The notes under the pieces are model-generated. The model saw nothing but the letters and a program-made list of their open reading frames with translations, did not search any database and was not told the DNA's origin. A program made the position numbers and the translations under genes. Below are positions 1,439 to 28,504 of a stretch of DNA of 32,301 nucleotides, in pieces (position 1 is the first letter of the stretch; each line of letters opens with the position of its first letter). Origin of the DNA: Gammaproteobacteria bacterium (GTDB taxonomy: Bacteria > Pseudomonadota > Gammaproteobacteria > DAOWEP01); assembly GCA_030638455.1 (NCBI GenBank), contig DAOWEP010000023.1:1-32301 (forward strand). Reading direction: 5' to 3'.

Positions 1439-1957
1439 AGAATGCACCATTATGTAGCGGTTATTTAACCATTATTTGATAGCAAATATGATGCATAGGA
1501 TCATCTCCGTCCTTCCTGGGGGGCAGTTCCAGATTATAAATTAATGTTGATGTGGTTAATCATGGGTTGGTGCATGTTCTGTATATGCATGATTCCTAAA
1601 TCTTGCAATATCAGTCTGGTTTTCAATGTAGGTTCTTTCCGGTTTGTTGTGTATTCCTGAGTAAGTAACCAGGCCGGGTAAGAATTCATACCTTATCCGT
1701 TATCAGATATTTCCTTAGTCCATAAGCAGGACAGTTATTATCAAATCATAAGTTGTTACCTGATCAAATATTCACTTGGATAGTCGAAATACTTAGGTAT
1801 ACCAGTTATGGAAATGTTGATTTAGAAGGAAGAAGGGCAAGGGTGAAAACACGAATACTACTAAAAGGTGCAAATAACTATAGGACTTAAATCAGACCCA
1901 AGATAAAGCAGTTATTTATTCGGTCTTTATGAAGTTGAAACATTTTAGGGTGATGCG

Positions 1958-2326
1958 ATGGGTAAAACAATTTTAATAGTTGATGATTCAGATTCAATGA
2001 GACATGTGCTCGGGGTTACCTTGAGAAAGGAAGGATATGAAGTAATCGACGCTAAAGATGGTGTTGATGCCCTGGAAAAGCTTGATGGAACAAGGATCTC
2101 ATTGATTATCAGTGATATCAATATGCCGAATATGGATGGCATAACCTTTATTAAGGAGGTGAAAAAAATTTATGCGTACAGGTTTACGCCTATTTGTACG
2201 TTGACCACCGAAGGGGGAAGGAAAAGGATTGATGAAGGGAAGGATGCCGGTGCCAAGGCGTGGATGGTTAAACCGTTTGTGCCACAAAAATTACTCGAAA
2301 CCGTTTCAATGCTTGTGATGCCCTGA
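1958..2326 (+). CDS. cheY: CheY-like single-domain response regulator
   Basis: 122 aa. Receiver signature ILIVDDSD, SDINMPNMDG, TLTTEG, MVKPF. It is the first gene of the che cluster. Confidence 0.9.
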   Translation: MGKTILIVDDSDSMRHVLGVTLRKEGYEVIDAKDGVDALEKLDGTRISLIISDINMPNMDGITFIKEVKKIYAYRFTPICTLTTEGGRKRIDEGKDAGAKAWMVKPFVPQKLLETVSMLVMP

Positions 2327-2387
2327 TCTGGATTTTTATATTAAGAAGCGTATTAAAACAATTAATAAAGAAAGTGGAGAGAAGACT

Positions 2388-2720
2388 ATGTCTATCAAAA
2401 CGTATGCTCGGAATGGAAAGTGCAAAATCAAGGTGGAGGTTGACATGACCATCTACACAACAGCGGATCTAATGCCGAAGATATTAAAGAGCCTGGATAA
2501 ACACAAGGAATTGGTTATAGATTTGTCTGATGTATTTGAGATTGATACATCAGGCATTCAGCTTCTTGAATTCATAAAACGTGAAGCCAGGCGAGATAAT
2601 AAAGTATTCAGCATGGTTTCTCATAAAGAGAACGTGCTGGATGTGTTTCATCTTTACCGATTGAATGGCCAATTGGATGCGATACCGGATAATTCTGTAT
2701 CGGAAATTAAGGTTGCCTAG
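2388..2720 (+). CDS. STAS-domain protein (anti-sigma-factor-antagonist fold)
   Basis: 110 aa. VIDLSDVFEIDTSGIQLL matches the SpoIIAA/RsbV-type DLSxVxFIDSSG segment, including the Ser/Thr position. It lies between cheY and cheA. Confidence 0.75.
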   Translation: MSIKTYARNGKCKIKVEVDMTIYTTADLMPKILKSLDKHKELVIDLSDVFEIDTSGIQLLEFIKREARRDNKVFSMVSHKENVLDVFHLYRLNGQLDAIPDNSVSEIKVA

Positions 2721-2731
2721 GTATCGCCTTC

Positions 2732-4960: not shown

Positions 4961-5047
4961 GCGTGTTGGATAGTTACATATTGTTTAATTAAACCGGAAT
5001 ATATTTTATGGCGGTATCCGCCTGCTAAGGACATAAATGGAGTTTCT

Positions 5048-8000: not shown

Positions 8001-8224
8001 CGCTAAGAAAAAAATACAGAATGTTAGATCAAGAGAGTACTAAGAGTACTAGTGGAGACAGAAGGTCAGCGTCTGTTGTCAGTACTTTGCAAATTCCAGA
8101 TCCAAAAGAAAATATTAGCATATCAGCGGAAAATGGTGCGCAGGGTACAGATGACCAGGAAAAGCGTGACATTCTTGAGATTGAACAGGGCGACTCAAGT
8201 GAAGTTGATTTCGAGAGATTCTAG
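5048..8224 (+). CDS. Methyl-accepting chemotaxis protein. Order of domains: Aer-type N-terminal PAS, TM1, about 270-aa periplasmic helical (NIT-like) domain, TM2, HAMP, second PAS, further HAMP-like repeats, MA signalling domain.
   Basis: 1058 aa. The N-terminus aligns with E. coli Aer PAS as I recall it ([28 protein letters not shown]...KNGDYYWV). TM segments are [20 protein letters not shown] and [39 protein letters not shown] resembles the NIT motif. The hairpin tip is [41 protein letters not shown]. Confidence 0.95.
8207..8221 (+). other. C-terminal pentapeptide DFERF of the MCP: candidate CheR/CheB tethering site at the end of a long low-complexity tail
   Basis: The last five codons, gat ttc gag aga ttc, precede the tag stop. 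This fits the aromatic-x-x-Phe shape of NWETF-type pentapeptides. It is preceded by a roughly 85-residue Ser/Asp/Glu/Gln-rich tail that follows the signalling domain. Confidence 0.5.
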
Positions 8225-8240
8225 CAAGGGATATGGCGTT

Positions 8241-8804
8241 ATGTCACCAGTAGCACATGTAACCACAGATGATGACTCAGGAGCTGATCAGATAGAGAGT
8301 CAAAACCAGTTTCTAAGCTTCAGGTTGGCAGATGAGGTATATGCAATTGATCTTATGAGCCTCAAAGAGATTATTGGATACGGTGATTTGACAAGTGTTC
8401 CTATGATGCCGGGCTTTATACGTGGGGTAATAAACTTGCGTGGAAGAGTTGTTCCTGTCGTGGATCTAGCAGAGAGGCTTGGTGGTCAGAAGACAGAGGT
8501 TAGGAAAAGGACCAGTATTATTATCGTGGAGATTTTTGATGAAAGTGATGACGAGAGAATTGATATTGGCATCATAGTCGATAGTGTGAATGAAGTTCTT
8601 GATATTTGCCCGGATGATATTGAGCCGCCTCCGAGTTTCGGTGCAAAGATTCGTACTGATTTTATTGAGGGGATGGGAAAGGTAGACGGGAAATTCCTGG
8701 TGTTACTTGATATAGGGAACATTCTTTCAATTGAAGAATTGTCCATGTTGAATGATGTAAATGTAGGGGTTAAGGAACCTGCCAGGAAACCGGAGACAGA
8801 ATAA
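8241..8804 (+). CDS. cheW: CheW coupling protein
   Basis: The track ORF starts at 8052 but overlaps the MCP 3-prime end. An in-frame ATG at 8241 follows the MCP stop (8222-8224). FLSFRLADEVYAIDLMSLKEII..VPMMPGFIRGVINLRGRVVPVVDL is a typical CheW sequence. Confidence 0.9.
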   Translation: MSPVAHVTTDDDSGADQIESQNQFLSFRLADEVYAIDLMSLKEIIGYGDLTSVPMMPGFIRGVINLRGRVVPVVDLAERLGGQKTEVRKRTSIIIVEIFDESDDERIDIGIIVDSVNEVLDICPDDIEPPPSFGAKIRTDFIEGMGKVDGKFLVLLDIGNILSIEELSMLNDVNVGVKEPARKPETE

Positions 8805-8805
8805 T

Positions 8806-9684
8806 ATGGTTAATGTACCAGACAAACTTACTGCTATCGGTAATCATAACTCGGTATATTCTGATGTTGTAAAGGAGTTTGTATGTGAGATAAAGGATGA
8901 TGAATTCCTGCGGATAAGGAATTATTTATACATGGAATCAGGGATTCACCTGGGGGTGGATAAAAAACAAATGATGGCAACTCGTCTTGCGAGCCGTTTA
9001 AGACATTTTAACGTGCACACATATAGTGAATATCTTCGCCTGGTGATGGATGGGGATCATGATGAAGAAAAGCAGGAGATTGTCGACCTGCTAACCACGC
9101 ATGAAACATATTTTTTCAGAGAGCCAGCCCACTTTGATTTTCTAAGGGAACGAATTTGCGAGAATTGGGAATATGGGAGGCTATTTCGCGCATGGAGTGC
9201 AGCCAGCTCTTCCGGAGAAGAAGCATATAGTATGGCCATGGTGTTTTCAGAACACCTGCCGCAAAATTACTGGGAGTTGGTTGGGTCTGATATATGCAGA
9301 GAAGTGCTGGAGAAGGCGCGTGCTGGATACTATCCAGTAGAAAAAACACAAAATATACCCGTTAACTATCTCAGTCAATATTGCCTGAAAGGTGTACGTT
9401 CACAAAACGGAGTTATGCTAATAGACGAGAATCTCCGTAAGCGGGTTCAATTCATAAAAGTAAACCTTAATCAATCATTTGAAGGTTTTCTTGGAATGTT
9501 TGATGTGATCTTTTTGAGAAATGTTCTTATCTATTTTGACCTTCATGCAAGACAACAAATCGTGCATCGTATCGTTGAGAAGCTGAATAAAGGTGGCTAC
9601 TTGTTTGTCAGTCATACGGAATCAATTATTGCTATTAGTGACCGACTTCAGCAAGTAGCGCCAAGTATTTATCAAAAAATATAG
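8806..9684 (+). CDS. cheR: Chemotaxis methyltransferase CheR
   Basis: 292 aa. THETYFFRE and SAASSSGEEAYS (SAM-binding region) are present. The ATG lies one nucleotide after the cheW stop. Confidence 0.9.
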   Translation: MVNVPDKLTAIGNHNSVYSDVVKEFVCEIKDDEFLRIRNYLYMESGIHLGVDKKQMMATRLASRLRHFNVHTYSEYLRLVMDGDHDEEKQEIVDLLTTHETYFFREPAHFDFLRERICENWEYGRLFRAWSAASSSGEEAYSMAMVFSEHLPQNYWELVGSDICREVLEKARAGYYPVEKTQNIPVNYLSQYCLKGVRSQNGVMLIDENLRKRVQFIKVNLNQSFEGFLGMFDVIFLRNVLIYFDLHARQQIVHRIVEKLNKGGYLFVSHTESIIAISDRLQQVAPSIYQKI

Positions 9685-9741
9685 TTATTAATATTAGAAG
9701 GATAATCGAAACAAATAAATGAGTGATGGTTATTGACTGTT

Positions 9742-10890
9742 ATGGATAAGAAAAAAAACAAAATTAAAGTATTGTTGGTGGACGACTCTGCAGTTGTAAG
9801 GCAATCGCTATCCAGGGTATTTGCTACTGCACCAGATATTGAAATTATTGGTAGTGTTATAGATCCACTTTTTGCACTGGAGCGAATGAAGCAGCAATGG
9901 CCTGATGTAATTGTGCTGGATATTGAAATGCCACGCATGGACGGAATAACTTTTCTGAATATTATTATGAAAGAACACCCAACTCCTGTAGTAGTTTGTT
10001 CGGCGCTGACCGCGAAAGGAGCAGAAACCACATTGCAGGCCCTCTCTTTAGGTGCTGTGGAAGTTATTAACAAGCCTGCCATTGGCGTAAAGGATTTTTT
10101 GAGGGAATCAGCGGAGTTTCTGATTGATGCTGTGAGAGCAGCTTCATGTTCTGATCTGAAAAAACTACAAGATAATTCAAATAAAAAAATTGAGATAAAT
10201 TCAAGTTCTGTAGAAGATGCCGTTTTCTCCAATGATTTACAGGGTTCAATGAATAATACAACTGACAAGGTAGTTGCCATAGGGACATCAACAGGAGGTA
10301 CGCAGGCACTTGAGCTGATTCTTCCCGCATTACCAAGAGTTGTACCTGGTATTGTGGTTGTTCAGCATATGCCAGAAAAGTTCACCCGATCTTTTGCTGA
10401 AAGACTTAATTCATTGTCCCGAATTAATGTAAAGGAGGCGGAGGATAATGACCGCGTATTACCTGGTGTGGCCCTGATTGCACCGGGTGGACGTCATATG
10501 GTTTTAGTCAGAAGTGGGGCACATTACCATGTAAAGATTCATGATGGACCACCTGTAAACAGGCATCGACCTTCAGTTGATGTGCTGTTCAGGTCAGTAG
10601 CGAAGGTGGCCGGTAAGAATTCATATGGCATTATATTAACAGGTATGGGTGATGATGGTGCAAGAGGGCTAAAAGAAATGCAGGATGTTGGCGCCAGTAC
10701 CGTTGCTCAGGATGAGTCTACCAGTATCGTTTTTGGTATGCCAAGGGAGGCAGTGAAGCATGGAGGTGTACAAACTGTTTTGCCGTTACAGGAAATACCA
10801 GGGTCAATTATCAGAAACCATTCTGACTCAGTTGATATGCAGCAGAAATCATGCCTGGTAAATAGTTGCAGAGAAGTATGTAGTAAGTAA
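9742..10890 (+). CDS. cheB: Chemotaxis methylesterase CheB (REC plus esterase)
   Basis: Receiver [21 protein letters not shown]. Esterase GTSTGG, VVVQHMP, GMGDDG. The track start 9733 is TTG; the ATG at 9742 is preferred. It has an unusually long linker and a 25-30 aa Cys-containing C-terminal tail. Confidence 0.9.
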
Positions 10891-14676: not shown

Positions 14677-14991
14677 ATGAAGAATATTAAACAAGTTTCG
14701 TTGGAAAGCGCAATGCCAGGATCAATATTGGCATATGACGTGCTGGATAGCAGGGAAAATCTGCTTATGAAGGCCGGCTTAAAGTTAACAGTGCAATCGT
14801 TGGCCATATTGGAGCGGAAAAATATATCACATATCCATATAGTGGATGATGTAATACAAACCCCCGAACAGTTGGAGATTATAAAGAAAACGATTGAAGA
14901 ATCACTGGCATTTCGTTTCCGCAAGAGCAGCTCTTCGCCAGAGATGCGTAAATTGCAATCGATCTTGTTGGCTTATCAACTGGAAAAGTAG
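14677..14991 (+). CDS. Small protein of unknown function sharing a module with the C-terminus of the second HD-GYP protein
   Basis: 104 aa. VSLESAMPGSILAYDVLDSRENLLMKAGLKLT..ISHIHIV resembles ISLKSLVPGMVLSKDVMLKDGVLLLSEGRILD..NLDIHV at 23080-23259. The only evidence that it is coding is the ORF, its position in the operon and this similarity. Confidence 0.5.
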   Translation: MKNIKQVSLESAMPGSILAYDVLDSRENLLMKAGLKLTVQSLAILERKNISHIHIVDDVIQTPEQLEIIKKTIEESLAFRFRKSSSSPEMRKLQSILLAYQLEK

Positions 14992-17054: not shown

Positions 17055-18347
17055 ATGAGCAAAGAGATAAAAGTCCTAATCGTTGATGATGATCAATATG
17101 GTTTCGATATTCTGGAAGAGATTCTTGCAGATGATTGCTATGTGTTGGAGCAGGCATTAGATGGTGTTATGGCCCTTGAGAAAATGGAATCGTTCAATCC
17201 GGATATTGTGCTGCTTGATTATGTTATGCCACGTATGGATGGTCTTGAGGTTTGTAAGCATATCCGGGCGAATCCGGATTTTAAGTTTACAAAGGTCATC
17301 ATGCTTTCCAGTCGAGGCGAATCTTCTGAACGCGTCAAGGGATATGGTGCAGGCGCTGATGATTACGTAGTAAAGCCGTTTGATTTTGACGAGATGTCAG
17401 CCAAGATCAAGGTGTTTTCCAAACTGAAATTTGTAGAGGAATCGGATCGGGCGCTTAGACAAGAAAAGGAGGAGCAGGCAAGTCTGATCAATCAACTGGA
17501 GCATACCAAAGACAAGTTAATGCAGGCGGATAAAATGGCTTCGATTGGTCAGTTGGCGGCAGGAGTTGCACATGAGATCAATAACCCGGTTGGTTACATT
17601 AACTCCAATATTGGAATGTTAAAAGAGTATATGGTGGAAATATTCCAGATGCTTGATGCCTATGAAAAGGCAGAAGATCTGGTAAGTCCAGAGTCCGAGC
17701 AAATGAAACTTGTTATGTCCTTGAAGAAAAAGCTGAAGCTTGATTTTCTCAGGCAGGATATTGTTGACCTGATGAATGAGTCAGAGGAAGGAGTAACACG
17801 TGTAAAGGATATTGTGCAGAATCTAAAGGACTTTTCGCATGTTGATGTCGCGGAGTGGGCGTGGTCGGATGTGCACAATGGACTTGATAGTACGCTTAAT
17901 ATTGTGAATAACGAGATTAAGTACAAGGCAGAAGTAAAAAAGGAATATGGAGAGCTTCCGTTGGTGGAATGTCAGATGCAGCAGGTTAACCAGGTGTTTA
18001 TGAATTTGCTGGTAAATGCTGCGCATGCAATTGAGGAAAGAGGAGTAATTACCATTCGGACCGGATGTGAAGGTGACTGGGTATGGGTAGAGATAGAGGA
18101 TACGGGTAAAGGAATCGCTGCTGAAGATAAGGGAAAGCTGTTTGAGCCATTTTTTACCACCAAACCTTTAGGTGAAGGCACAGGTCTTGGACTTTCCGTT
18201 TCCTATGGAATAATAAATACGCATGGTGGCAGGATTGATGTGGAAAGTGAGGTAGGTAAAGGATCAAAGTTCAGAATATGGCTGCCGGTGCACCATAGTC
18301 AGGGCGCTGGAAATGTCAACGAAAAAATGTACGCCGGTCAGGAATAG
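17055..18347 (+). CDS. Soluble REC-histidine kinase (paralog 1 of 4)
   Basis: 430 aa. LIVDDD..LLDYVMPRMDG..VVKPF, then ADKMASIGQLAAGVAHEINNPVG, NQVFMNLLVNAAHAI, DTGKGI, GTGLGLSVSYG. Confidence 0.9.
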   Translation: MSKEIKVLIVDDDQYGFDILEEILADDCYVLEQALDGVMALEKMESFNPDIVLLDYVMPRMDGLEVCKHIRANPDFKFTKVIMLSSRGESSERVKGYGAGADDYVVKPFDFDEMSAKIKVFSKLKFVEESDRALRQEKEEQASLINQLEHTKDKLMQADKMASIGQLAAGVAHEINNPVGYINSNIGMLKEYMVEIFQMLDAYEKAEDLVSPESEQMKLVMSLKKKLKLDFLRQDIVDLMNESEEGVTRVKDIVQNLKDFSHVDVAEWAWSDVHNGLDSTLNIVNNEIKYKAEVKKEYGELPLVECQMQQVNQVFMNLLVNAAHAIEERGVITIRTGCEGDWVWVEIEDTGKGIAAEDKGKLFEPFFTTKPLGEGTGLGLSVSYGIINTHGGRIDVESEVGKGSKFRIWLPVHHSQGAGNVNEKMYAGQE

Positions 18348-18352
18348 AAGCG

Positions 18353-19879
18353 ATGGATTATAAGCAGTTATTGAATGAAGATTTCGACGCTGAGCTGGAA
18401 AATCGTATTAATATGCGCACGCTACAATTAGCTGCGAAAAATGAAGAATTAAATGAAAAAATAGTTGAGTTAGAGCAAGTACGTCAACAGCAAGGAGTTT
18501 GGTCAGAGGCGCAGATGTGGGTCAACGAAGCGCAGCAATTGCTGTCCACAGAGGGTGATGTCCAGCGTTTCTATGAGAAAGTCGTTTATCATGCAATGTT
18601 ACTTACGCGAGCAAAATACGGTGCCTATATCTCATTTGATGGGACAGGAAAATTGATTGAATCTGTTGAGCAAGGGACTGAAAATAATTCGCCCCGGAAC
18701 ATTGAAAACCTTATATCTGATATTAGTAAATTCTTGAGCAAGGGAGAGCATGTTCAGGCAGGCGAGCATAATGAGAAGCCTGTCCCGATTTCTTTATTGT
18801 CCATTAGGGTAGCAAATGAAGAGCTGGCAATGTTCCCTTTGTATCAGAAGGGCGCCCTGAAGATAATCATTTTATTGGGTAATAAAAAGGACGACGAGTT
18901 ATTTGATATTCATGATGAGATGGCGCTTCGGTTTTTTGTAAGCCAGGTAGATGGTGCGCTTGAACGACAAAAATTAATTGATGCCTTGAAATGTGGACAT
19001 GAAGAATTAAAGCATAAGCACGAAGAGCAGTGTGTATTGGTCAATAAATTGCAGGAAGCTCAGGGGCAGATTTTACAATCGGAAAAGATGGCTTCCATAG
19101 GGCAGCTTGCTGCGGGTGTTGCACACGAGATTAATAATCCAATTGCTTTTGTCTTTTCAAATATGAATGCAATGCAGAAATATGTTGGTGATTTGCTCAA
19201 GGTGTTAGAGGTCTATGAACAAGCTGATCCGTTTTTAGAACAAAATAAAGAAATATTTAGCAATATTCAGCAGGTTAGAGGTCAGGCAGAGCTGGAATAT
19301 CTGAAAGAAGATATCTCTGTGCTGGTAAATGAGTCTAGAGATGGGTTGGTGCGTGTCAAACAGATCGTTCAGGATTTAAAGGATTTTTCTCATGTTGATG
19401 AAGCTGAGTGGCAATGGGTAGATCTGCATCAGTGCTTGAACAGTACATTGAATATCGTTAATAACGAAATCAAGTACAAGGCCGAAGTGATGAAAGAATT
19501 TGGTGATTTACCGAAAGTTGAATGTATGGCTTCACAACTCAACCAGGTGTTTATGAATCTACTGATAAATGCCTCTCATGCCATTGAGAAAAGAGGCTCT
19601 ATTATTATTCGTACACGGTTGGAAGATGAGTGGGTATGTATAGAGATTATAGATACGGGCAGGGGGATTGAACCTGCGCATATGAACCGCTTGTTTGAGC
19701 CATTTTTTACGACTAAACCTGTAGGCATTGGAACAGGTCTGGGATTATCACTGTCATATGGCATTGTAAATAAGCATGGTGGTCATATAGATGTGGAGAG
19801 TAAGCCTGGCGAAGGAAGCACATTCCGGATATTGTTGCCCGTTAGGCAAGCAGAAGAAGGGGCTAAAAGAGTGGGTTGA
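18353..19879 (+). CDS. Soluble histidine kinase with coiled coil and GAF-like input (paralog 2)
   Basis: 508 aa. GAF-like FYEKVVYHAMLLTRAKYGAYISFD..IIILLGNKKD. SEKMASIGQLAAGVAHEINNPIA, NQVFMNLLINASHAI, GTGLGLSLSYG. Confidence 0.85.
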   Translation: MDYKQLLNEDFDAELENRINMRTLQLAAKNEELNEKIVELEQVRQQQGVWSEAQMWVNEAQQLLSTEGDVQRFYEKVVYHAMLLTRAKYGAYISFDGTGKLIESVEQGTENNSPRNIENLISDISKFLSKGEHVQAGEHNEKPVPISLLSIRVANEELAMFPLYQKGALKIIILLGNKKDDELFDIHDEMALRFFVSQVDGALERQKLIDALKCGHEELKHKHEEQCVLVNKLQEAQGQILQSEKMASIGQLAAGVAHEINNPIAFVFSNMNAMQKYVGDLLKVLEVYEQADPFLEQNKEIFSNIQQVRGQAELEYLKEDISVLVNESRDGLVRVKQIVQDLKDFSHVDEAEWQWVDLHQCLNSTLNIVNNEIKYKAEVMKEFGDLPKVECMASQLNQVFMNLLINASHAIEKRGSIIIRTRLEDEWVCIEIIDTGRGIEPAHMNRLFEPFFTTKPVGIGTGLGLSLSYGIVNKHGGHIDVESKPGEGSTFRILLPVRQAEEGAKRVG

Positions 19880-19881
19880 TC

Positions 19882-19983
19882 ATGAAGATATCAATCACAA
19901 AAAATCTTGTTGCGATGTTGCTCATGCCAGTGATCGGAGTATTGATTGCACTCGCCGCATATTTTCATTCCATTCATCGGTAG
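19882..19983 (+). CDS. Candidate 33-codon single-TM small ORF, or a relic of a membrane anchor
   Basis: My own translation is MKISITKNLVAMLLMPVIGVLIALAAYFHSIHR. It starts 3 nt after the upstream kinase stop. It is too short to appear in the track, has only a weak RBS, and has no other support. Confidence 0.25.
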   Translation: MKISITKNLVAMLLMPVIGVLIALAAYFHSIHR

Positions 19984-20023
19984 AGACTAACAGTGATTAT
20001 ATTATTGCTGCAGGATTTTTATA

Positions 20024-21919
20024 GTGCATAAAGAACACGAGAACACATTGATCAATGTAAGCGAAAAAACCCAGCAGCAATTGAACGCGCTGGCAAATGC
20101 AAGTGTGCGGATGGCAATGATATCAAGTGCGACGGATGTAATTCAGCAAGCTGATAACAGGTTGCAGAATGGGGGGGAGCTTGATTCTTTTTATAAAGAA
20201 ATCCTCAGTGAAGTGATGGAGGTTACTGCTGCACGTTATGGTGCATTTGTTGTTTTTGATATTGAGGGAAGTCCTTGTGGATCTGTTGCGCACGAAATTT
20301 CAGCAGGGCTTGTGGGAGGGCTTGTAGAATTCTCAGTTAGTAAGGGTATGTTTGGAGCTGAGCCTAACGAAATATCAGCAATTCGTGTTGACAATATGGC
20401 TGAGGAATCATTATCAGGAAATTGCATATCGGGTCATTCAAATATAAAAACATTGTTTATTCAGCCATTAATAATGGGTGGAGTGATGCGTGGAATTATA
20501 TATTTGGCAGATAAGAAAAGCGGTGAATCATATACAGATAGCGACGAATTTATTCTTAACATGGTCGCCAGGGATATAGTAAATATTTTAGATCGAAATG
20601 AATTATCAAAAAAAATGCACGAAGATATTGAATTACGTGAGCATGCACAAAAAGAATTAAATATGGCCAGCGCGCAGCTTCGGTATCTGGTGGAAAATAT
20701 ACCATCGGTTATCTATCGCGCGGTTCCGTCAGGTGATTTTTCTTTTACCTATATCAGTGAAAATATCCACCGTACTCTTGGGTATCACCCTATGGATGTT
20801 TTAGGAGACCCCAATTTCTGGTTTCAACATATACACCCGGATGATTTGCCGGAATTATTTCCCAGAATATCTTATCTGGTTGAAGATGGTCAGCAAACAT
20901 ATGATTATCGTTTTAAACATAAGAATGGTTCGTATCACTGGATGCATGACACAATGCGGGTAATTTATGATGCTGATAATACACCTCTCGAAATAGTAGG
21001 TTCATTGACTGATATTACAGAATTGAAACTGGCAGAGAAGGAGATCGATAAGACCAATATGGAGTTGGATGAGGCACATGAACAATTATTGCAATCAGAG
21101 AAAATGTCATCTATCGGGCAACTAGCTGCTGGAGTAGCGCATGAGATCAATAATCCAATCGCCTTTGTTTATTCCAATCTTAGTACCATGCAAAAGTATA
21201 CGCAGAAACTGCTTAATGTACTGAAAGTCTACAGTAAGGCAGAACCACTACTTGCGCAGAACGAGGAGGTTGCTAAGGAAGTTCAGCAGGTGAGAGAGCA
21301 GGCTGACCTGGATTTTCTGATAGAAGATTTACCGGAGCTTGTGCAGGAGTCACGAAATGGTTTGTCCCGTGTTAAACAGATCATTCAGGACCTGAAGGAT
21401 TTCTCACGGGTTGATCATGCTGAACTGGAATTTGTGGATTTGCACAAGGGTCTTGACAGTACATTGAATATTGCCAATAACGAGATCAAGTACACGGCGG
21501 AGGTCGTAAAGGAATATGGCGATTTGCCGCTGGTGGAGTGTCGCTCGGCACAAATCAATCAGGTGTTTATGAATCTGTTAGTAAATGCGGCCCATTCCAT
21601 TAAGGAGCATGGAGTGATTACCATAAGGACAGGAACAGAAGAAAAACTGGTATGGGTAGAGATTACGGATACAGGGAGCGGGATTGCACCTGAAAATATG
21701 AAAAAGTTGTTTGACCCATTTTTTACAACAAAACCGGTGGGCAAAGGTACTGGGTTAGGGTTGTCACTTTCTTACGGGATTGTGAATACTCACGATGGCC
21801 GAATTGAGGTAGAGAGTGAAGTTGGTAAGGGCGCTACATTCAGGGTATGGCTTCCAGTTAAGCAGGAAGACAAGCCCGATGAGCTTGATAATGAAGTGCA
21901 GGCATCTGCAATTGCCTGA
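20024..21919 (+). CDS. Soluble histidine kinase with GAF and PAS inputs (paralog 3)
   Basis: 631 aa; GTG start is uncertain. The GAF-like FYKEILSEVMEVTAARYGAFVVFD..IIYLADKKS is paralogous to that of the preceding kinase. PAS: VIYRAVPSGDFSFTYISENI..YRFKHKNGSYHWMHD. SEKMSSIGQLAAGVAHEINNPIA, NQVFMNLLVNAAHSI. Confidence 0.85.
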   Translation: MHKEHENTLINVSEKTQQQLNALANASVRMAMISSATDVIQQADNRLQNGGELDSFYKEILSEVMEVTAARYGAFVVFDIEGSPCGSVAHEISAGLVGGLVEFSVSKGMFGAEPNEISAIRVDNMAEESLSGNCISGHSNIKTLFIQPLIMGGVMRGIIYLADKKSGESYTDSDEFILNMVARDIVNILDRNELSKKMHEDIELREHAQKELNMASAQLRYLVENIPSVIYRAVPSGDFSFTYISENIHRTLGYHPMDVLGDPNFWFQHIHPDDLPELFPRISYLVEDGQQTYDYRFKHKNGSYHWMHDTMRVIYDADNTPLEIVGSLTDITELKLAEKEIDKTNMELDEAHEQLLQSEKMSSIGQLAAGVAHEINNPIAFVYSNLSTMQKYTQKLLNVLKVYSKAEPLLAQNEEVAKEVQQVREQADLDFLIEDLPELVQESRNGLSRVKQIIQDLKDFSRVDHAELEFVDLHKGLDSTLNIANNEIKYTAEVVKEYGDLPLVECRSAQINQVFMNLLVNAAHSIKEHGVITIRTGTEEKLVWVEITDTGSGIAPENMKKLFDPFFTTKPVGKGTGLGLSLSYGIVNTHDGRIEVESEVGKGATFRVWLPVKQEDKPDELDNEVQASAIA

Positions 21920-21924
21920 TATAA

Positions 21925-23262
21925 ATGGGTGCGATAATGAATAATGCAGATACCATAATACAAGAACAGACATTTTCCGAGTCACTGTTGTTTGTTGATG
22001 ATGAGGAAAGCATTCTTTCTTCATTGAAACGGCTATTTAGGCCATTGGGTTACCGCATCTTTACGGCCCAGAGCGGGGCAGAGGGGCTGGATATTATGAA
22101 AAAAGAGGAGATTGATCTGGTGGTATCAGATATGCGGATGCCTGAAATGGATGGCGCACAGTTTCTTGAAAATGTAGCGGCCAACTGGCCTAAAACAGTG
22201 CGTATTCTTCTGACAGGTTATGCAGATATTACATCCACTGTTGCAGCAATTAATAAGGGGAAAATATACAGTTATTTCAGTAAACCCTGGGAAGATAATG
22301 ACATTGCTCTGTCCATACGCCATGCGCTGAACGTAAAGGATCTGGAAGAGGAAAGAGACGGTCTCCTTGAAATGATATTGGTCAAGAATGAAAAACTGAA
22401 AGAGCTGAATGAAAGTCTTGAAGACAAGGTAGAACAGCGAACCGCAGAACTCAAGCAGGCCTTTCTCAAGCTCGAAAAGTCTCATGAGTCACTTAAAATG
22501 GGTTATTTCGCAACGGTTAAAAGTTTTTCCAGCTTGATTGAGATGCGTGAAGGTGCAGTCGCGGGTTACTCACGTCGCATTGCAGATCAGGCACGAAAGC
22601 TGGCACTGAAAATGGAGATGAGTAATGCCGATGTTCAGGATGTTCTCTATGCATCGTTACTACATGATATAGGTAAAATCGGAATGCCTGATCATCTTTT
22701 TAACAAACCATTTAATGCGCTTAGCCCTGAAGATAAAGTGACTGTCTGTAAACACCCTGTTATAGGTCAGGGAGTTATGATGGCATGGGGATCTCTGGAG
22801 GGCGTTGCAAGGATTATTCGTAGTCATCGTGAATGCTACGATGGTTATGGTTATCCGGACTCTCTGAAGGGAATAGAAATTCCATTGGGGGCAAGAATTC
22901 TATCCGTTGTAAGTGATTTTGAAGCATTAAGGATTGGGAAGCTGGCATCACAAAAGTATTCTGCTTTGGAAGCACAGGAATATCTTATCAGGCATCGTGG
23001 TAAACGATATGATCCTGATGTTGTTGACGCATTTTTGAATATGGATTCCAGTCATCAGCCAACACCACAAAATCAGGAGCTGAAGATTTCTTTAAAGTCC
23101 CTGGTGCCAGGTATGGTTCTATCAAAAGATGTGATGTTGAAAGACGGAGTACTGTTATTGTCTGAGGGCCGTATTCTAGATAAAAGAAATATCGAGGAGC
23201 TCCGGGATATGGAGAAATCTCTGAATGAGAATCTGGATATCCATGTATTAATGAAAGGGTAA
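21925..23262 (+). CDS. Response regulator: REC, HD-GYP, C-terminal LxPGxxLxxDV module
   Basis: 445 aa (alternative ATG at 21937). LLFVDDEESIL, SDMRMPEMDG, YSYFSKPW, LLHDIGKIGMPD, HRECYDGYGYPD. Confidence 0.9.
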   Translation: MGAIMNNADTIIQEQTFSESLLFVDDEESILSSLKRLFRPLGYRIFTAQSGAEGLDIMKKEEIDLVVSDMRMPEMDGAQFLENVAANWPKTVRILLTGYADITSTVAAINKGKIYSYFSKPWEDNDIALSIRHALNVKDLEEERDGLLEMILVKNEKLKELNESLEDKVEQRTAELKQAFLKLEKSHESLKMGYFATVKSFSSLIEMREGAVAGYSRRIADQARKLALKMEMSNADVQDVLYASLLHDIGKIGMPDHLFNKPFNALSPEDKVTVCKHPVIGQGVMMAWGSLEGVARIIRSHRECYDGYGYPDSLKGIEIPLGARILSVVSDFEALRIGKLASQKYSALEAQEYLIRHRGKRYDPDVVDAFLNMDSSHQPTPQNQELKISLKSLVPGMVLSKDVMLKDGVLLLSEGRILDKRNIEELRDMEKSLNENLDIHVLMKG

Positions 23263-23366
23263 TAATTCGATGTTCAGGATTCTGGTTATTAATTATGAAG
23301 GGAAAAAAGTTGGTTAGACCATGAGTGATGAAGACATACAGGACGAAGGAAGCGAGTAAAGCAGCC

Positions 23367-24041
23367 ATGTCTGAATTCAATGAAAAAAAGAACAAGATTA
23401 CACTAAAGCTGGTGTATTACGGCCCTGCGCTTAGTGGAAAGACAACGAACCTGATGAGCTTACATGACATACTTAGTCCTGAGCTTAAAGGAGAGATGAT
23501 GGTGCTGGAAACCAAGGACGACCGAACCCTGTTTTTTGATCTTTTGCCAATGGGGATTACTGCGCCATCAGGTTTGTTGATAAAACTGAAGTTGTTTACG
23601 GTGCCGGGACAAGTTGCACATGATAGTACCAGAAAAGCAGTTCTGTCACGTGCAGATGGTGTAGTGTTTGTAGCGGACTCCCAGAAAACGCAAAGCATTA
23701 ATAATGCAGAATCATTTGAAAATCTTGTAGGTAATATTGCCAGGGTAGGATTGGATATTGAAAAGCTACCATTGGTTGTTCAGTTTAATAAACGTGATCT
23801 ATCAGATATCTTGACCGAGGATGAAATTAGAACCCGCTGGAAAGACGCTCATTGGCCGTTATTATTTAGTACTGCATTGCAGGGATCTGGTGTAGAAGAG
23901 ACATTAAGTGAATTGTTATCACTTGTCTATGACGCATTGGATGAGGAGTATGGCCTTAATGAGCGGCATAATCTGGATAAGGATTTGTTTGTATCAGGTG
24001 TGACGGGTTGTGAGTTCTCAAAAGCGGTCAATGGAGGATAA
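23367..24041 (+). CDS. mglA: MglA-family Ras-like small GTPase with a roughly 35-aa C-terminal extension
   Basis: Taken from the internal ATG at 23367 (MSEFNEKK..). It matches Myxococcus MglA as I recall it. P-loop: YYGPALSGKTTN here, YYGPGLCGKTTN in MglA. Switch 1: DDRTLFFDLLP here, TDRTLFFDFLP in MglA. TVPGQV, VFVADSQ and QFNKRDL also match. Confidence 0.85.
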   Translation: MSEFNEKKNKITLKLVYYGPALSGKTTNLMSLHDILSPELKGEMMVLETKDDRTLFFDLLPMGITAPSGLLIKLKLFTVPGQVAHDSTRKAVLSRADGVVFVADSQKTQSINNAESFENLVGNIARVGLDIEKLPLVVQFNKRDLSDILTEDEIRTRWKDAHWPLLFSTALQGSGVEETLSELLSLVYDALDEEYGLNERHNLDKDLFVSGVTGCEFSKAVNGG

Positions 24042-24045
24042 AAGT

Positions 24046-25290
24046 ATGGGTTTAGAGTCTTTTAAAAGTGAACCGCTTCCTGCGTTTGACAGGGAAATGT
24101 CAATGGAAGAATTATTGGCGGGTATTGATCATGATAAATTGAGAGGAACATTGGCAAGCCTTTTAGGTGTGCCTGTATGCTTGCTTAATGAAGACGAGGA
24201 TGTAGTGTTAGGGTATAAGCTTGGACCATCCTGTAAACGTGCGCCGATTCATTCTGATATGGAGATCATTGGTTACCTTGAAGCAGGGGAAATAGATGAT
24301 GAAGCCCTTGAGTCGGCAGTATGTTTTATTGAATTACTATTAAAGAATTCGGAACGTTATTTAATGGCTTCAAATCTTCATTTGCAGGCGGTAAATGAAG
24401 ATTTTGAGAAGCTGAAAAAGAAGCATGAGGCATTAGTGGAGTCAGAAGGTCGTTATAAGGAGCTTTCAGAAAATCTTGAGCAACGTGTTCAGGAGCAGGT
24501 CAAGACTATTGATCTTGCCCGGAGACAGATTTATCAATCAGAAAAACTGGCATCAGTAGGACAGCTGGCGGCAGGCGTGGCGCATGAAATTAACAATCCG
24601 ATAGGTTTCATGAGAAGTAATCTTAATACAGCACAATCCTATCTTGAAAAACTAACGGTATTTTCAGAGAAGTTGGTAGAGGAGAATAATGAGAGAGATT
24701 TGTTGCGTATATGGAATGAAATGGAACTGGACTACGTCATCAAGGATTTCAACGAAATGATGGAAGAGACAATTGATGGAGCCGTGCGTATTGCGAAAAT
24801 CGTAAGTGATTTAAAAGGGTTTTCAAATGTAGATGCAAATGAAGAGGAGGTAATCGATATAAATCAGTGTGTCCGCAGGGTGTGTGACATTGTATCTGGT
24901 AAGGATGAAAGGCATGCGGTACAGATACGAGGTTTTGAGGGTTGCCCGCCTGTACGATGTCGGGTGGGAGAGCTTGGTCAGGCATTACTGAATATATTAT
25001 TAAATGCAGAGCAGGCAATTAAGGGCTCTGGGAATATTTATGTGCAAACCTCATGTGAGGACGACAGGATATGTATTTCTATTGTCGATACTGGAGTCGG
25101 TATGACCAATGAAGTATTGGAGCGCGCGTTTGAGCCATTTTTTACAACTCGTGATGTAGGTAAAGGAGCAGGACTTGGTCTTACTGTCAGTCGAGATATC
25201 GTACAATCACATGATGGAGAAATATCAATAGAGAGTGAAGTGGGTAACGGCACCACCGTGAAAGTCTGGCTACCTGTGGCCAAGGATTAG
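24046..25290 (+). CDS. Soluble histidine kinase with an unassigned roughly 110-aa N-terminal domain (paralog 4)
   Basis: The ATG at 24046 lies 7 nt after GGAGGA (24033-24038), and the mglA stop lies between them. The track GTG at 24010 overlaps mglA. SEKLASVGQLAAGVAHEINNPIG, LLNILLNAEQAI, DTGVGM, GAGLGLTVS. Confidence 0.85.
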   Translation: MGLESFKSEPLPAFDREMSMEELLAGIDHDKLRGTLASLLGVPVCLLNEDEDVVLGYKLGPSCKRAPIHSDMEIIGYLEAGEIDDEALESAVCFIELLLKNSERYLMASNLHLQAVNEDFEKLKKKHEALVESEGRYKELSENLEQRVQEQVKTIDLARRQIYQSEKLASVGQLAAGVAHEINNPIGFMRSNLNTAQSYLEKLTVFSEKLVEENNERDLLRIWNEMELDYVIKDFNEMMEETIDGAVRIAKIVSDLKGFSNVDANEEEVIDINQCVRRVCDIVSGKDERHAVQIRGFEGCPPVRCRVGELGQALLNILLNAEQAIKGSGNIYVQTSCEDDRICISIVDTGVGMTNEVLERAFEPFFTTRDVGKGAGLGLTVSRDIVQSHDGEISIESEVGNGTTVKVWLPVAKD

Positions 25291-25305
25291 TAAAGAGAAA
25301 ATATT

Positions 25306-27549
25306 ATGGGAAATTATTCATCATTATTTACAGATGTTTCAGATGACAAAGAAGATGACTCGATAGGAAATCCTGTATTTGAAGGCTATCAAATTCTTTT
25401 TGTCGATGATGAGAAGAATGTGCTCAACTCGCTTAAACGTGTTTTTCGACAGGAAAATTATCGGATACTAACGGCTGTAGATGGAGAAGAGGCACTGGAA
25501 ATACTGGGCCGTGAAAAATGCCAGCTTATGATCTCGGATTACATGATGCCGAAGATGGATGGTGCCGAGCTCTTGCGAGAGGTTAAGAAAAACTATCCCG
25601 ACATGATACGTATTATGCTGACAGGCCACGCAGATATGAATGCTGTTCTGGCCGCGGTGAGGGATGGTGCTGTATATAAGTTTATTCTGAAGCCCTGGAA
25701 CGATGATGACATACGCGTGACTGTAGCGTTGGCACTGGAGCAATATGATTTAATACAGAATAACAAGATATTGATAAAGCAGAACAAGGAAAAGAGCGAG
25801 GAGATCAGCTCTCTGGCAAAGCTTGCCGTAACCAATCGTAGTCAGCTTGCCATTATGTTGCATAAGCGAAATCTTCTGAATGAGAAGCAGGTTCAGGAGC
25901 TGTACAAGCAGCAACAAGTCAATAAAGAGCCAATCTTTAAGATTATTCTTGAACGTGATTGGGTTAGTGAGGATAAAATACGCAATATTCTTCGTAAAGA
26001 TCTGATGGTTGAGGAAGTATCACTGGATGAAATCCAGGTAGATGCTTCAGTTGCTTCGCTAATTCCGCATAGTCTATGTAAACAACAATCAGTGTTACCG
26101 ATAAGGGAGAGTAACCGGCGCTTGACATTGGTAATGGCAGACCCGATGGATATGGGGCTAATTGATGACTTGAGTTTTACTACGGGTCTTGAGATCCAGG
26201 CCGTGATGGCTAATGTTTCAGATATAAAAAAGAAGATTGCTGAAATTTATGGACAAGATGATAGTTCTTTTACTGAAATTGAAACGCTGATTGGGCTAGC
26301 AGATCCTTTTGAAGGTATCGAAGTTCTTATTGAGGATGACGATGACATTTCTATTGAAGAATTACTTCATGGTACAGATGAGCCTCCTGCTATACGATTG
26401 GTCAACGCAATTATAATTGAGGCTATTCGTCTGCGTGCAAGCGATATTCATATTCAGCCGCGAACAAAAAGTGTAATGGTGCGCTACCGTATTGATGGTG
26501 TTTTGCATGACAAGATTCAGGTGCCACATAGCATGCACATGTCTTTGGTTGCCCGTATCAAAGTAATGGCTGAGCTGGATATTACAGAACGTCGTCGACC
26601 TCAAGACGGGCGAATAACAGTAAAAACACCCATGCGCATTGTTGACTTGAGAATTTCTTCGTTGCCTACCATTAGTGGTGAGAAGATTGTCATGCGTATA
26701 TTGGACCGAAATTCATCTGTACTAAAGATGGAACGCTTGAGTATGTCTGATATGAATCTGAAAAAAATTACTAATGTCGCATGTAGGCCACAAGGGCTTA
26801 TTCTTGCAACAGGTCCTACAGGTAGTGGCAAGACCACCACGCTTTATTCCATGTTGCAGCATGAGGCCACCCCTGAAAAGAACTATGTCACTATTGAGGA
26901 TCCTGTTGAGTATTATATGGATATGGCTGGCCAGGTAATGATAAAAGATAAAATTGGTCTGGATTTTTCGAGTGTATTGCGCGCCATTCTACGTCAGGAT
27001 CCAGATGTGATTTTATTGGGTGAGATTCGTGATTATGAAACTGCGGAGGTAGCCCTTAATGCGGCATTGACAGGGCATTTAGTATATTCAACATTGCATA
27101 CTAACTCCGGAGTGGCAACTATTGCGCGCCTGTTTGACCTGGGACTGAAGCCCTTTGTGCTAGCCTCAGCACTGGAGGCTATTATTGCACAGAGATTGGT
27201 TCGGAAAATATGTGAGGATTGCAGTGAATCGGTATCTGTAGATTCTGATGTACTGTATAAACTAGGCCCTGTTTTCCAGTCATCAAAAATTGAAACATGC
27301 AAAGGTAAAGGCTGCCCCAAGTGCAATAACACTGGTTATTCGGGCCGGGTTGCGATTTATGAAGTATTGATTCCAAGTGAAAAGATGCGCCACCTGATAT
27401 CTTCAGGTGCCAGTATTCATGAGATTACAAATCTGGTCAATGAAGAAGGCATGGTTACGCTAATTGAGGATGCCCACGATAAAGTTAGTATGGGCCTGAC
27501 TACAATAGAAGAAGTATTTCGTGTTTTAGGCCCACAAGTTATTGATTGA
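25306..27549 (+). CDS. PilB/GspE/MshE-family secretion ATPase with an N-terminal receiver: REC, T2SSE_N-like domain, AAA+ ATPase with a tetracysteine motif
   Basis: 747 aa. REC: LFVDDEKNVL, SDYMMPKMDG, YKFILKPW. Walker A GPTGSGKTTT. VTIEDPVEY. Walker B DPDVILLGEIRD. His box TGHLVYSTLHTN. CEDC..CPKC. Confidence 0.9.
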   Translation: MGNYSSLFTDVSDDKEDDSIGNPVFEGYQILFVDDEKNVLNSLKRVFRQENYRILTAVDGEEALEILGREKCQLMISDYMMPKMDGAELLREVKKNYPDMIRIMLTGHADMNAVLAAVRDGAVYKFILKPWNDDDIRVTVALALEQYDLIQNNKILIKQNKEKSEEISSLAKLAVTNRSQLAIMLHKRNLLNEKQVQELYKQQQVNKEPIFKIILERDWVSEDKIRNILRKDLMVEEVSLDEIQVDASVASLIPHSLCKQQSVLPIRESNRRLTLVMADPMDMGLIDDLSFTTGLEIQAVMANVSDIKKKIAEIYGQDDSSFTEIETLIGLADPFEGIEVLIEDDDDISIEELLHGTDEPPAIRLVNAIIIEAIRLRASDIHIQPRTKSVMVRYRIDGVLHDKIQVPHSMHMSLVARIKVMAELDITERRRPQDGRITVKTPMRIVDLRISSLPTISGEKIVMRILDRNSSVLKMERLSMSDMNLKKITNVACRPQGLILATGPTGSGKTTTLYSMLQHEATPEKNYVTIEDPVEYYMDMAGQVMIKDKIGLDFSSVLRAILRQDPDVILLGEIRDYETAEVALNAALTGHLVYSTLHTNSGVATIARLFDLGLKPFVLASALEAIIAQRLVRKICEDCSESVSVDSDVLYKLGPVFQSSKIETCKGKGCPKCNNTGYSGRVAIYEVLIPSEKMRHLISSGASIHEITNLVNEEGMVTLIEDAHDKVSMGLTTIEEVFRVLGPQVID

Positions 27550-27643
27550 AGCTTTGAGGGACATAGAAGCCCCCTGGCTTTAAGCCTCTCGCTGGAAAAC
27601 CGAAGCATATTATTGTTAACAAATATAGAAACCGGGTTAATTC

Positions 27644-27884
27644 ATGAATGAAGAACCTGTAATACTGATAGTTGATGATGTTGCGAGTAATATTCAGTTA
27701 TTGGCGCAGACAATGCCTGGTCTTATTTACCGGATATTGTCATGCCCACATGTATGGCTATGAAGTTTGTAAGCATTTAAAAATGGGTGAGAAAACCAGA
27801 AAGATACCAGTGATTATTATTACCGGGAAAGCTGATGATGGGAAGTATAGTCTAGACATAATGATAGGGAGTTCCAGGATATGA
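27644..27884 (+). pseudogene. Degraded response-regulator (REC) gene with an internal deletion and frameshifts
   Basis: The ATG at 27644 gives MNEEPVILIVDDVASNIQLLAQ and then hits a stop. The rest of a receiver (..HMYGYEVCKHLKMGEKTRKIPVIIITGKADDG) is in another frame (track ORF 27672-27884). The roughly 35 residues between the DD and the phospho-Asp segment are missing. Confidence 0.6.
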
Positions 27885-28504
27885 AACATTTAATTTTAAT
27901 ATCTATTATATTATTCATGCAGGCAAATGTATATGCAAAAGATGTGAAGGAGCTAGGTGAATATAGAGTCGCTAATGCAATACACTCTATTATCCAGTCA
28001 ACTCGGAAGATATATACATCTGAAATATCTGATAAGTTGCTCCAGGATGGAACAGGTTCACTATTAGAATATAGGCATCAGAAGGGTTTTGTACCATTGC
28101 CTGTTCAGGTAATACAACAAATAGGCAAGGATCTAAGTAAAAGTACTGGAGGAAATATTAGTATTGAATTAAAAAGTAAATATTTTGTTAACGAGAAAAA
28201 TAGATTGATAGGCAGGGAAGCAGAAGCCTGGACATACCTGGAAAAGCAACAAAATTCAGCAAAAAATTTAAAAAATATGACATGGAAACCTTACGTATAT
28301 ATCAATAATGCAGTTGATAGGGATTATCTAATATACATCGTGCCAGACCTTGCAACTGAATACGCATGTATTGCGTGCCATAAATCTCAGGAAAATACGG
28401 CTTCAGTTAAATATGCACGTGAACAGCACGGTATCACAGGCGAGCCAATTTTAAAGCTATGGCATATGCTAGGTATTCTTAAGGTAATGGTGGCGATAGA
28501 TTGA
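27881..28504 (+). CDS. Secreted DUF3365 (Tll0287-like) heme-c protein
   Basis: 207 aa. Signal peptide MKHLILISIILFMQANVYA. A single CxxCH motif (CIACH). The overall layout fits the DUF3365 family by memory. The last codons overlap an HDOD-like relic. Confidence 0.65.
   Translation: MKHLILISIILFMQANVYAKDVKELGEYRVANAIHSIIQSTRKIYTSEISDKLLQDGTGSLLEYRHQKGFVPLPVQVIQQIGKDLSKSTGGNISIELKSKYFVNEKNRLIGREAEAWTYLEKQQNSAKNLKNMTWKPYVYINNAVDRDYLIYIVPDLATEYACIACHKSQENTASVKYAREQHGITGEPILKLWHMLGILKVMVAID

Follow-up and report, generated by a model that had tools for sequence, protein, structure and literature searches.

A Conserved Gene Trio Encoding an MglA-Family GTPase, a Soluble Histidine Kinase and a Receiver-Fused PilB-Type ATPase: A Candidate Cytoplasmic Signalling Unit

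Introduction

Bacterial Ras-like GTPases are understood almost wholly through MglA and MglB of Myxococcus. How orphan MglA proteins are regulated and what they act on is a question raised by a contig of a Gammaproteobacteria bacterium (GenBank assembly GCA_030638455.1, contig DAOWEP010000023.1), whose positions 1 to 32,301 are called the window below. On it, a gene for an MglA-family GTPase is followed at once by genes for a soluble histidine kinase and for a PilB/GspE-type ATPase with an N-terminal receiver (REC) domain, so that the GTPase has beside it a kinase that is a candidate for its regulator or effector, and a motor that is a candidate for its target. An earlier reading of the letters, hereafter the original prediction, had proposed that the three genes at 23367-27549 are a linked, translationally coupled trio and an uncharacterised system. 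Do the three genes belong together, and what might they do as one? Their positions, and that of the first junction, are as follows.

23367..24041, + strand: MglA-family GTPase, 224 amino acids (aa), ATG at 23367
24046..25290, + strand: soluble histidine kinase, 414 aa, TAG stop at 25288-25290
25306..27549, + strand: REC-MshEN-PilB/GspE ATPase, 747 aa, ATG at 25306
24033..24048, + strand: GTPase-kinase junction, with GGAGGA at 24033-24038, the TAA stop of the GTPase gene at 24039-24041 and the kinase ATG at 24046-24048

Each of the three genes lies on the + strand where the original prediction had put it, and the intergenic gaps are 4 nucleotides (nt) between GTPase and kinase and 15 nt between kinase and ATPase. 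The placement of the GTPase stop between a GGAGGA and the kinase ATG, also described there, was read directly in the sequence, and the kinase start at ATG 24046 is backed by orthologue alignments. Likewise, both the coordinates and Pfam agree that a receiver-bearing PilB/GspE ATPase gene begins 15 nt after the kinase stop.

Conservation of the Gene Trio

Related loci were collected by a scan with one genome per species, which gave 80 loci with relatives of the GTPase, and each locus was searched by tblastn with the proteins of the window. In 57 of 57 loci whose GTPase is at least 57% identical to that of the window (L001-L057), the order GTPase, kinase, REC-MshEN-ATPase was found wherever the contig reaches, with the kinase gene within a few nt of the GTPase gene, the ATPase gene about 1.2-1.6 kb past the end of the GTPase gene, and all three on one strand; the only exceptions were contigs that end too early. 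Loci with a GTPase of 52% identity or less had no trio. The hosts are Gammaproteobacteria (Thiohalobacter, Thiohalomonas, Chromatiaceae, Ectothiorhodospiraceae, Oleiphilaceae and Hahella sp. NBU794), Betaproteobacteria (Sulfuricella, Methylophilaceae, Dechloromonas, Azonexus and Noviherbaspirillum), Desulfuromonadales (including Oryzomonas japonica Red96), Desulfobacterales and Nitrospirota; the trio is conserved in fixed order over at least three bacterial phyla.

Look-ups seeded with the GTPase, the kinase or the ATPase returned the same trio in four more contigs, namely those of another Gammaproteobacteria metagenome-assembled genome (MAG), Sulfurimicrobium lacus and Sulfuricella denitrificans skB26, and a contig with a protein that NCBI attributes to Sulfuriferula sp. 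AH1. When 1195 neighbouring genes from 82 sequences were clustered, the kinase was present in 54 of 58 loci and the ATPase in 47 of 58, the remainder being contigs that end early. The GTPase and kinase genes of L001, L082, L083 and L084 overlap by 4 nt or lie 1 nt apart and, by this layout, the GTPase-kinase junction is translationally coupled. A survey of gene order among relatives had been proposed in the original prediction, and the idea that the order is not conserved failed decisively in it. The trio is conserved and tightly coupled, and no description of the cassette was found in our literature searches, in line with the view that this is an uncharacterised system.

The GTPase

The GTPase carries a P-loop GPALSGKT (K25/T26), D52-R53-T54-LFFD, TVPGQ82 and N141-K-R-D144. 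In a phmmer search against the PDB, it was about 50% identical to the solved MglA structures 5ymx, 3t12 and 6h17 at E ~1e-45 (best match 1.6e-45), the next family being Arl3 at 9e-4, and its residue numbering is the same as that of MglA for the P-loop, the R53 Arg finger, T54, Q82 and NKxD. R53 and Q82 are invariant in 57/57 trio-clade GTPases and are also found in canonical MglA. As judged from the sequence, the protein retains all MglA catalytic residues, and its description as an MglA-type GTPase with an intrinsic Arg finger and a switch 2 Gln was confirmed.

We placed the GTPase in a neighbour-joining tree of 83 sequences with 100 bootstrap replicates. The trio-associated GTPases formed a clade of their own (bootstrap 100/100), which a small Myxococcota group (L058-L065) joined at 91/100, and MglA of Myxococcus xanthus and Thermus thermophilus fell in a different clade, beside the GTPase of a Zixibacteria MAG. 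R53, T54, Q82 and NKxD are common to all groups in the tree. H85 is found in the kinase-coupled clades, whereas Tyr is invariant at this position in the 18 other comparison sequences, including MglA of M. xanthus and T. thermophilus. Only the kinase-coupled clades have an extended C-terminus, in which F208 is conserved, and R95 in place of Gly is an extra mark of the trio clade. By tree and residues, the GTPase is an MglA-family, Group 1-like protein outside the canonical MglA clade. The phylogenetic check named in the original prediction therefore upheld membership of the MglA family but not of canonical MglA, since the protein belongs to a separate clade with a kinase-coupled sister.

Table S2 of Wuichet and Søgaard-Andersen (2014, PMC4316618) gives Daro_0968 (214 aa) and HCH_00229 (216 aa) as Group 1 proteins without an MglB neighbour; judged by host and length, both are probably members of the trio clade. 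The same study describes Group 1 neighbourhoods as widely varying, occasional PATAN proteins aside, and does not mention the trio arrangement.

The Myxococcota sister clade has the GTPase-kinase pair without the ATPase. In L059 (10001-13390), and also in L060, L063, L064 and L065, the GTPase gene is followed by a gene for a PocR-HisKA-HATPase kinase and then by one for a methyl-accepting chemotaxis protein (MCP), with that for CheA further downstream; in L058, too, a kinase follows the GTPase. This is a second, different GTPase-kinase layout, tied to chemosensory genes. Several non-trio MglA-like genes of L066-L078 (e.g., L066:9992-11323 and L076:9258-10922) run on in frame (350-550 aa), and the extensions had no Pfam match in the five that were scanned; they might represent true fusions, or else errors of gene calling in genomes of high GC content.

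The Histidine Kinase

The kinase divides into three parts.

24046..24300, + strand: N-terminal domain, residues 1-85, α-α-β4, AlphaFold pLDDT (predicted local distance difference test) 87
24298..24555, + strand: signalling helix from the N-domain to the DHp domain, residues 85 to about 170, with the invariant R104-Y105-x-M107-A-S-x-x-H112
24556..25290, + strand: kinase core, with H180 of the DHp domain (24583-24585), a long inter-helix insert, and N320, D348xGxG352 and G372xGxG376 of the CA domain

Pfam recognised HisKA and HATPase_c (7.6e-24) and left about 130 N-terminal residues without a match; neither a transmembrane segment nor a HAMP domain was detected. The 67 kinase orthologues (~410 aa) align end to end, with H180, N320, the G1 box and the G2 box invariant; on these residues, the catalytic core is intact. 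The best NCBIfam match was 'T2SS_HK' NF038348, whose score of 245 bits falls short of the cut-off (450).

AlphaFold models of the full-length kinase (pLDDT 81.5) and of residues 1-110 alone (pLDDT 87.3) contain two short helices and a four-stranded sheet (44-80), followed by a long helix (85-212) that runs into the DHp domain. Because Foldseek with the full-length model gave generic kinase cores (ZraS, WalK and HK853), the N-domain was modelled separately. Against the PDB, it gave weak GAF matches (E 0.02-0.3, TM-score 0.4-0.54), and no MglB or Roadblock chain was among the 50 matches listed, so that an MglB-like fold of this domain is not supported. A Roadblock-like fold had been named in the original prediction as a possibility to be checked by structure prediction; the α-α-β4 model with its weak GAF likeness, together with Foldseek, led us to reject a Roadblock/GAP fold (GAP, GTPase-activating protein).

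Pfam at E ≤ 1 on the 67 orthologues gave no PocR, PAS or GAF match for the N-domain. With hhalign, the Myxococcota PocR kinases could be aligned from residue 50 on, mostly over the helix and the core, where the helix motif reads RYxMASxLHxExV..DY..LQ.KH in the trio kinase versus YKxALTSxMHVExV..SY.ELQ.KN in the Myxococcota kinases. The N-domain is plausibly a cut-down PocR/GAF-like sensor or docking domain. When residues 1-110 were searched against 1.84 billion representative proteins, 33 matches were obtained. Thirty of these begin within the first 14 residues, the full-length ones being kinases of ~380-420 aa, and the two weakest are repeated short hits within much longer proteins. Judging from these matches, the N-domain is confined to the trio kinase family, and no other domain architecture uses it.

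The Receiver-Fused ATPase

Pfam divides the ATPase into Response_reg (residues 30-139, 3.6e-25, with YKFILKPW), MshEN (235-320) and T2SSE PF00437 (357-739, 1.9e-128), and the following features were located.

25390..25746, + strand: receiver, residues 29-147, with D34, D35, the phospho-acceptor D78 (25537-25539), T106 and K129
25837..26007, + strand: degenerate MshEN_N region, residues 178-234
26008..27549, + strand: MshEN C-subdomain and PilB/GspE ATPase, with Walker A G503-T510 (26812-26835), Asp box, Walker B E573, His box H591/H598 and tetracysteine C636/C639/C670/C673

The receiver residues D34, D35, D78, T106 and K129 are invariant in 48/48 orthologues. Conservation in the same 48 extends to the motor motifs (Walker A, Asp box, Walker B, His box and tetracysteine) and to the N2 arginines, most positions being invariant. 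Together, the conserved motor motifs and receiver residues point to an active motor with a working phospho-receiver; since every phospho-acceptor residue is present in all 48, the ATPase could be phospho-controlled, as originally suggested. The closest solved relative is PilB of Geobacter (6olj, 1.3e-130). The protein falls below the NCBIfam cut-offs both for PilB (TIGR02538, 564.7 bits versus 675.65) and for GspE (TIGR02533, 547.5 versus 630.25), and its 120 closest relatives carry generic database names. Of the three trio proteins it is the best conserved (65-82% identity).

Binding of cyclic di-GMP (c-di-GMP) by MshEN involves two 24-residue motifs, RLGxxLLxxGLLxxxxLxxxLxxQ (PMC5013675). 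In an alignment with Geobacter PilB and the 48 orthologues, Q180 and A182 replace Arg and Gly of the RLG in motif 1, and P209, F/I211 and D/E232 (F211 and D232 in the protein of the window) replace Arg, Gly and the final Gln in motif 2; in both motifs, the pattern is kept across orthologues. Both motifs are, by this alignment, degenerate, and the loss of c-di-GMP binding by XpsE was put down to such changes (PMC5013675). REC is among the domains found with MshEN in the survey of that study. In a 2024 review of PilB, FimX is the one protein for which a REC domain is mentioned, and no regulatory domain fused to PilB is named (PMC11656802).

Some ATPases are longer than that of the window. The ATPase of L045 (11928-14333, 801 aa) has an extra C-terminal double zinc-ribbon domain, and those of other Desulfuromonadales, Desulfobacterales and Nitrospirota loci are of similar length (801-834 aa).

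The Companion Cassette and the Surrounding Signalling Genes

Clustering of the neighbouring genes and Pfam-annotated contexts revealed a second cassette that usually accompanies the trio and consists of a sensor kinase of the same DHp type (often with GAF), a REC-HD-GYP protein and a single receiver. Two of its members are found in the window.

20024..21919, + strand: GAF-PAS histidine kinase of the same DHp type, core 42% identical to that of the trio kinase
21925..23262, + strand: REC-HD-GYP regulator (Pfam HD_5 and Response_reg), a predicted c-di-GMP phosphodiesterase

A REC-HD-GYP gene lies near the trio in 35 of 58 loci, and the receiver of the one in the window is the closest window paralogue of the ATPase receiver (47% identity). 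A GAF kinase gene occupies the corresponding position in both Sulfurimicrobium lacus and Sulfuricella denitrificans. The companion cassette lies upstream of the trio in most loci and downstream in L084 and L045, the REC-HD-GYP gene of L045 being downstream of the ATPase gene and not upstream; because its side differs in these two loci, trio and companion cassette move as units. The single receiver, which the window lacks, has a conserved C-terminal tail, PGIT.V.W.PDGS, and is encoded in at least 19 loci (e.g., L001:6416-7021, L082:8754-9311 and L083:7496-8101), directly upstream of the GTPase in many. By loose analogy with RomR, this tailed receiver might be a phosphorylation-controlled partner of the GTPase.

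Four kinases of the window (17055-21919 and 24046-25290) share the DHp sequence QLAAGVAHEINNP and an inter-helix insert of about 40 residues, with core identities of 37-43%. Similarly, the receivers of the ATPase, of the REC-HD-GYP protein at 21925, of a REC-PAS protein and of a 167-aa REC protein are 43-47% identical to one another. These paralogous kinases and receivers point to a network of several kinases and response regulators, and in this genome the cassette sits within such a larger network downstream of the Che cluster.

Partners Absent from the Trio

No Roadblock/LC7 domain was matched by Pfam among the window open reading frames (ORFs) of at least 100 aa, and Roadblock was not among the recurrent families in 150 small flanking ORFs (L001-L056 and one ORF of the window), in which Response_reg recurs (33 hits). 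The statement that no MglB gene is nearby is borne out by both scans. A further part of the original prediction, that the kinase occupies the usual position of MglB, holds only loosely: the kinase gene adjoins the GTPase gene and there is no MglB gene, but mglB usually precedes mglA in canonical systems (PMC4316618, Table S2).

The window contains no pilin, platform or secretin genes, as had been noted and as the Pfam scan agrees. In a Zixibacteria MAG (L075:9617-12779), genes for Roadblock, MglA, Roadblock and an MshEN-T2SSE ATPase without a receiver follow one another, which is a canonical MglA/MglB pair encoded beside a PilB-type motor; this neighbourhood supports a general functional link between MglA and PilB.

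Che genes were found within 10 kb of the trio in only 1 of 57 loci, so that chemosensory control, which the original prediction had made part of the system, is not a conserved feature of the cassette, and a Che cluster as a conserved partner of the trio was rejected. The trio had also been placed at the end of a Che cluster; such a cluster does lie upstream in the window, but it ends 12.5 kb before the trio, with ten other signalling genes in between.

Other Features of the Window

All genes spanning 1958-30883 are on the + strand, and the surroundings of the trio are as follows.

1958-10890, + strand: Che cluster encoding CheY-like REC, STAS, CheA, PAS-NIT-HAMP MCP, CheW, CheR and CheB
About 12 kb after the Che cluster, + strand: two-component genes encoding REC, a three-receiver hybrid kinase, REC-PAS, a 104-aa ORF, HDOD, REC-HD-GYP, a REC-kinase, a kinase and the GAF-PAS kinase
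Downstream of the trio: Tll0287-like protein, CBS proteins and cytochrome b561, then an AcrB fragment on the − strand

Rfam and tRNA scans of the whole window gave no matches, and a promoter and terminator scan of 19800-28000 gave counts similar to those of shuffled sequence and no information on operon limits. Just past the ATPase gene, at 27645-27850, a remnant of a receiver gene is spread over three frames (MNEEPVILIVDDVASNIQLLAQ..., ...LPDIVMP..., ...YGYEVCKHLKMGEKTRKIPVIIITGKADDGK); it is either a pseudogene or the result of assembly frameshifts. The 104-aa ORF (14677-14991), between the REC-PAS and HDOD genes, has no Pfam match, and a 106-aa protein of Sulfuricella denitrificans (L083:3567-3887), also without a Pfam match, takes the same position before HDOD. 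At the left end of the window (1-1957), a stop-free frame of 254 aa on the − strand exits the 5' end, and no complete ORF of at least 65 aa lies wholly inside this region, which gave no Rfam or tRNA match. Nested inverted repeats occur at 1145-1467, with 62-nt arms (77% complementarity) and two pairs of 23-24 nt (88-96%).

Discussion

Each component family of the trio is already known, as are a GTPase-kinase link, from the actinobacterial conservon, and an MglA-PilB link. What looks new is their combination across phyla: a Group 1 MglA that is an orphan, a dedicated soluble kinase whose N-domain is its own, and a receiver-fused PilB-type motor with degenerate c-di-GMP motifs. Like MglA of M. 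xanthus and T. thermophilus, which is functionally tied to type IV pilus ATPases, the trio GTPase has the catalytic residues at the shared numbering and about 50% identity; unlike it, the trio GTPase has no Roadblock partner, belongs to a separate clade with H85, R95 and a C-terminal extension, and has its gene next to those of a kinase and of the very ATPase. SofG and MglA of Bdellovibrio are also orphans without a cognate MglB, and SofG positions PilB and PilT, but their genes are not encoded near those of interaction partners (PMC4316618). The conservon (CvnA-CvnD) couples an MglA-family GTPase genetically and functionally to a histidine kinase (PMC4316618). However, the conservon kinase is membrane-bound with HAMP whereas the trio kinase is soluble; the conservon has the Roadblock protein CvnB as well as CvnC and no response regulator, whereas the trio has neither protein (no Roadblock or CvnC-like gene of the conservon type was found with it) and is completed by a receiver-fused motor; and the Arg finger, which the trio GTPase has in R53, is missing from the Group 2 GTPase of the conservon.

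With regard to the motor, the c-di-GMP-regulated MshE/PilB ATPases have the same MshEN-T2SSE body, to which the trio ATPase adds an N-terminal receiver, degenerate motifs and the lack of pilus or secretion genes alongside. Phosphorylation signalling is also known to control extension motors in trans, whereas the trio receiver is fused to its motor in cis. In Synechocystis, PATAN-REC regulators reportedly act on PilB in trans. PilG/PilH, FimX and PdeK-PdeR are described as two-component or chemosensory control of the extension motor (PMC11656802).

We consider it a little short of an even chance that the GTPase, its dedicated soluble kinase and the receiver-fused motor ATPase work as one cytoplasmic signalling unit, in which the state of the GTPase gates the kinase and the kinase phosphorylates the receiver of the motor. 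The GTPase is, in the simplest reading, the input of the kinase, because the sole input domain of the kinase is tiny, cytoplasmic and family-specific and its gene is coupled to that of the GTPase. In such a unit, the GTPase in one nucleotide state would dock on the N-domain or the signalling helix of the kinase and set its kinase/phosphatase balance, and the kinase would then phosphorylate the ATPase receiver at D78 and, probably, the paralogous receivers in the REC-HD-GYP protein and the other response regulators as well. Receiver phosphorylation would switch the activity of the hexamer, or would control whether the motor is recruited to a machine like a type IV pilus or a type II secretion system whose genes lie elsewhere. 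As the N-terminal input of the motor, the receiver may have taken over from c-di-GMP, while the companion cassette (kinase, REC-HD-GYP and REC) would tune c-di-GMP in parallel. A bolder version, possible but rather doubtful, is a new G-protein pathway in which the GTPase is a direct ligand of the kinase through a purpose-made domain, with the motor receiver next in line; this would be a three-tier switch without MglB or c-di-GMP binding, perhaps for a machine or a function other than pilus extension.

Several observations weigh against a GTPase-gated unit of this kind. Because the window encodes four paralogous kinases and four related receivers, the adjacent kinase need not be the sole or main phosphodonor. 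The N-terminus of the kinase in delta-group and Nitrospirota loci was not detectably similar to that of the window by tblastn, so that the idea of a docking domain rests mainly on the gamma/beta group. Neither the clustering of the 1195 neighbours nor the Pfam contexts (±10 kb) linked a pilin, PilC/GspF or secretin gene to the trio in any locus. Finally, the putative loss of c-di-GMP binding by the ATPase is read from the motif changes, and imperfect MshEN motifs may still bind c-di-GMP, as PMC5013675 warns.

The same genes could be connected differently. If the kinase replaced MglB, the reading towards which the original prediction leaned, its N-domain would be a GAP or a guanine nucleotide exchange factor (GEF), the GTPase would be the output that places or enables the ATPase, much as MglA and SofG act on PilB in Myxococcus, and receiver phosphorylation would be a separate input. 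The absence of a linked MglB throughout the trio clade and the tight GTPase-kinase junction fit this arrangement, as do the proposal that the conservon kinase acts upstream of its MglA-family GTPase and the low intrinsic activity of canonical MglA, which needs a partner to position R53 and Q82 (both PMC4316618). However, the N-domain is not a Roadblock domain, its weak matches being to GAF with no MglB among the 50 listed (it may yet be a GAP or GEF of another fold), and the sister clade has a full PocR ligand-sensor at this place, which resembles an input domain more than a GAP; we regard a kinase in the role of MglB as unlikely. Distinctly unlikely, in our estimate, is a GTPase that acts as a landmark, binding the ATPase (or its receiver/MshEN region) and localising it, for example to a pole, while the kinase phosphorylates the receiver independently and does not communicate with the GTPase. 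Such a role would match the control of PilB and PilT placement by MglA and SofG in Myxococcus (PMC4316618), the neighbouring MglA and PilB genes of the Zixibacteria MAG and the high conservation of the ATPase (65-82% identity), but the tightest junction is that between GTPase and kinase, not between GTPase and ATPase, and GTPase and kinase remain paired in the Myxococcota sister clade, where no ATPase accompanies them, so that this pairing is the older and more constant link.

It is vanishingly improbable that the three genes have unrelated functions and merely adjoin in a gene-dense signalling island. The window is indeed packed with two-component genes, among which some juxtapositions are expected, but the same order recurs in 57/57 loci of Gamma- and Betaproteobacteria, Desulfobacterota and Nitrospirota with differing flanking genes, which effectively refutes accidental adjacency, and the trio stays intact where its position relative to the HD-GYP cassette changes.

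The question of how the three proteins are connected is directly testable, since the cassette is present in the cultured Sulfuricella denitrificans skB26, Sulfurimicrobium lacus, Hahella and Oryzomonas japonica, for which complete or draft genomes exist. For annotation, thousands of database proteins labelled 'GTPase', 'ATP-binding protein' or 'GspE/PulE family protein' belong here. If the signalling unit proposed above is true, the trio ATPase would be the first PilB-type motor governed by its own phosphorylatable receiver, and the cassette would represent an evolutionary swap of second-messenger control for phosphorylation control.

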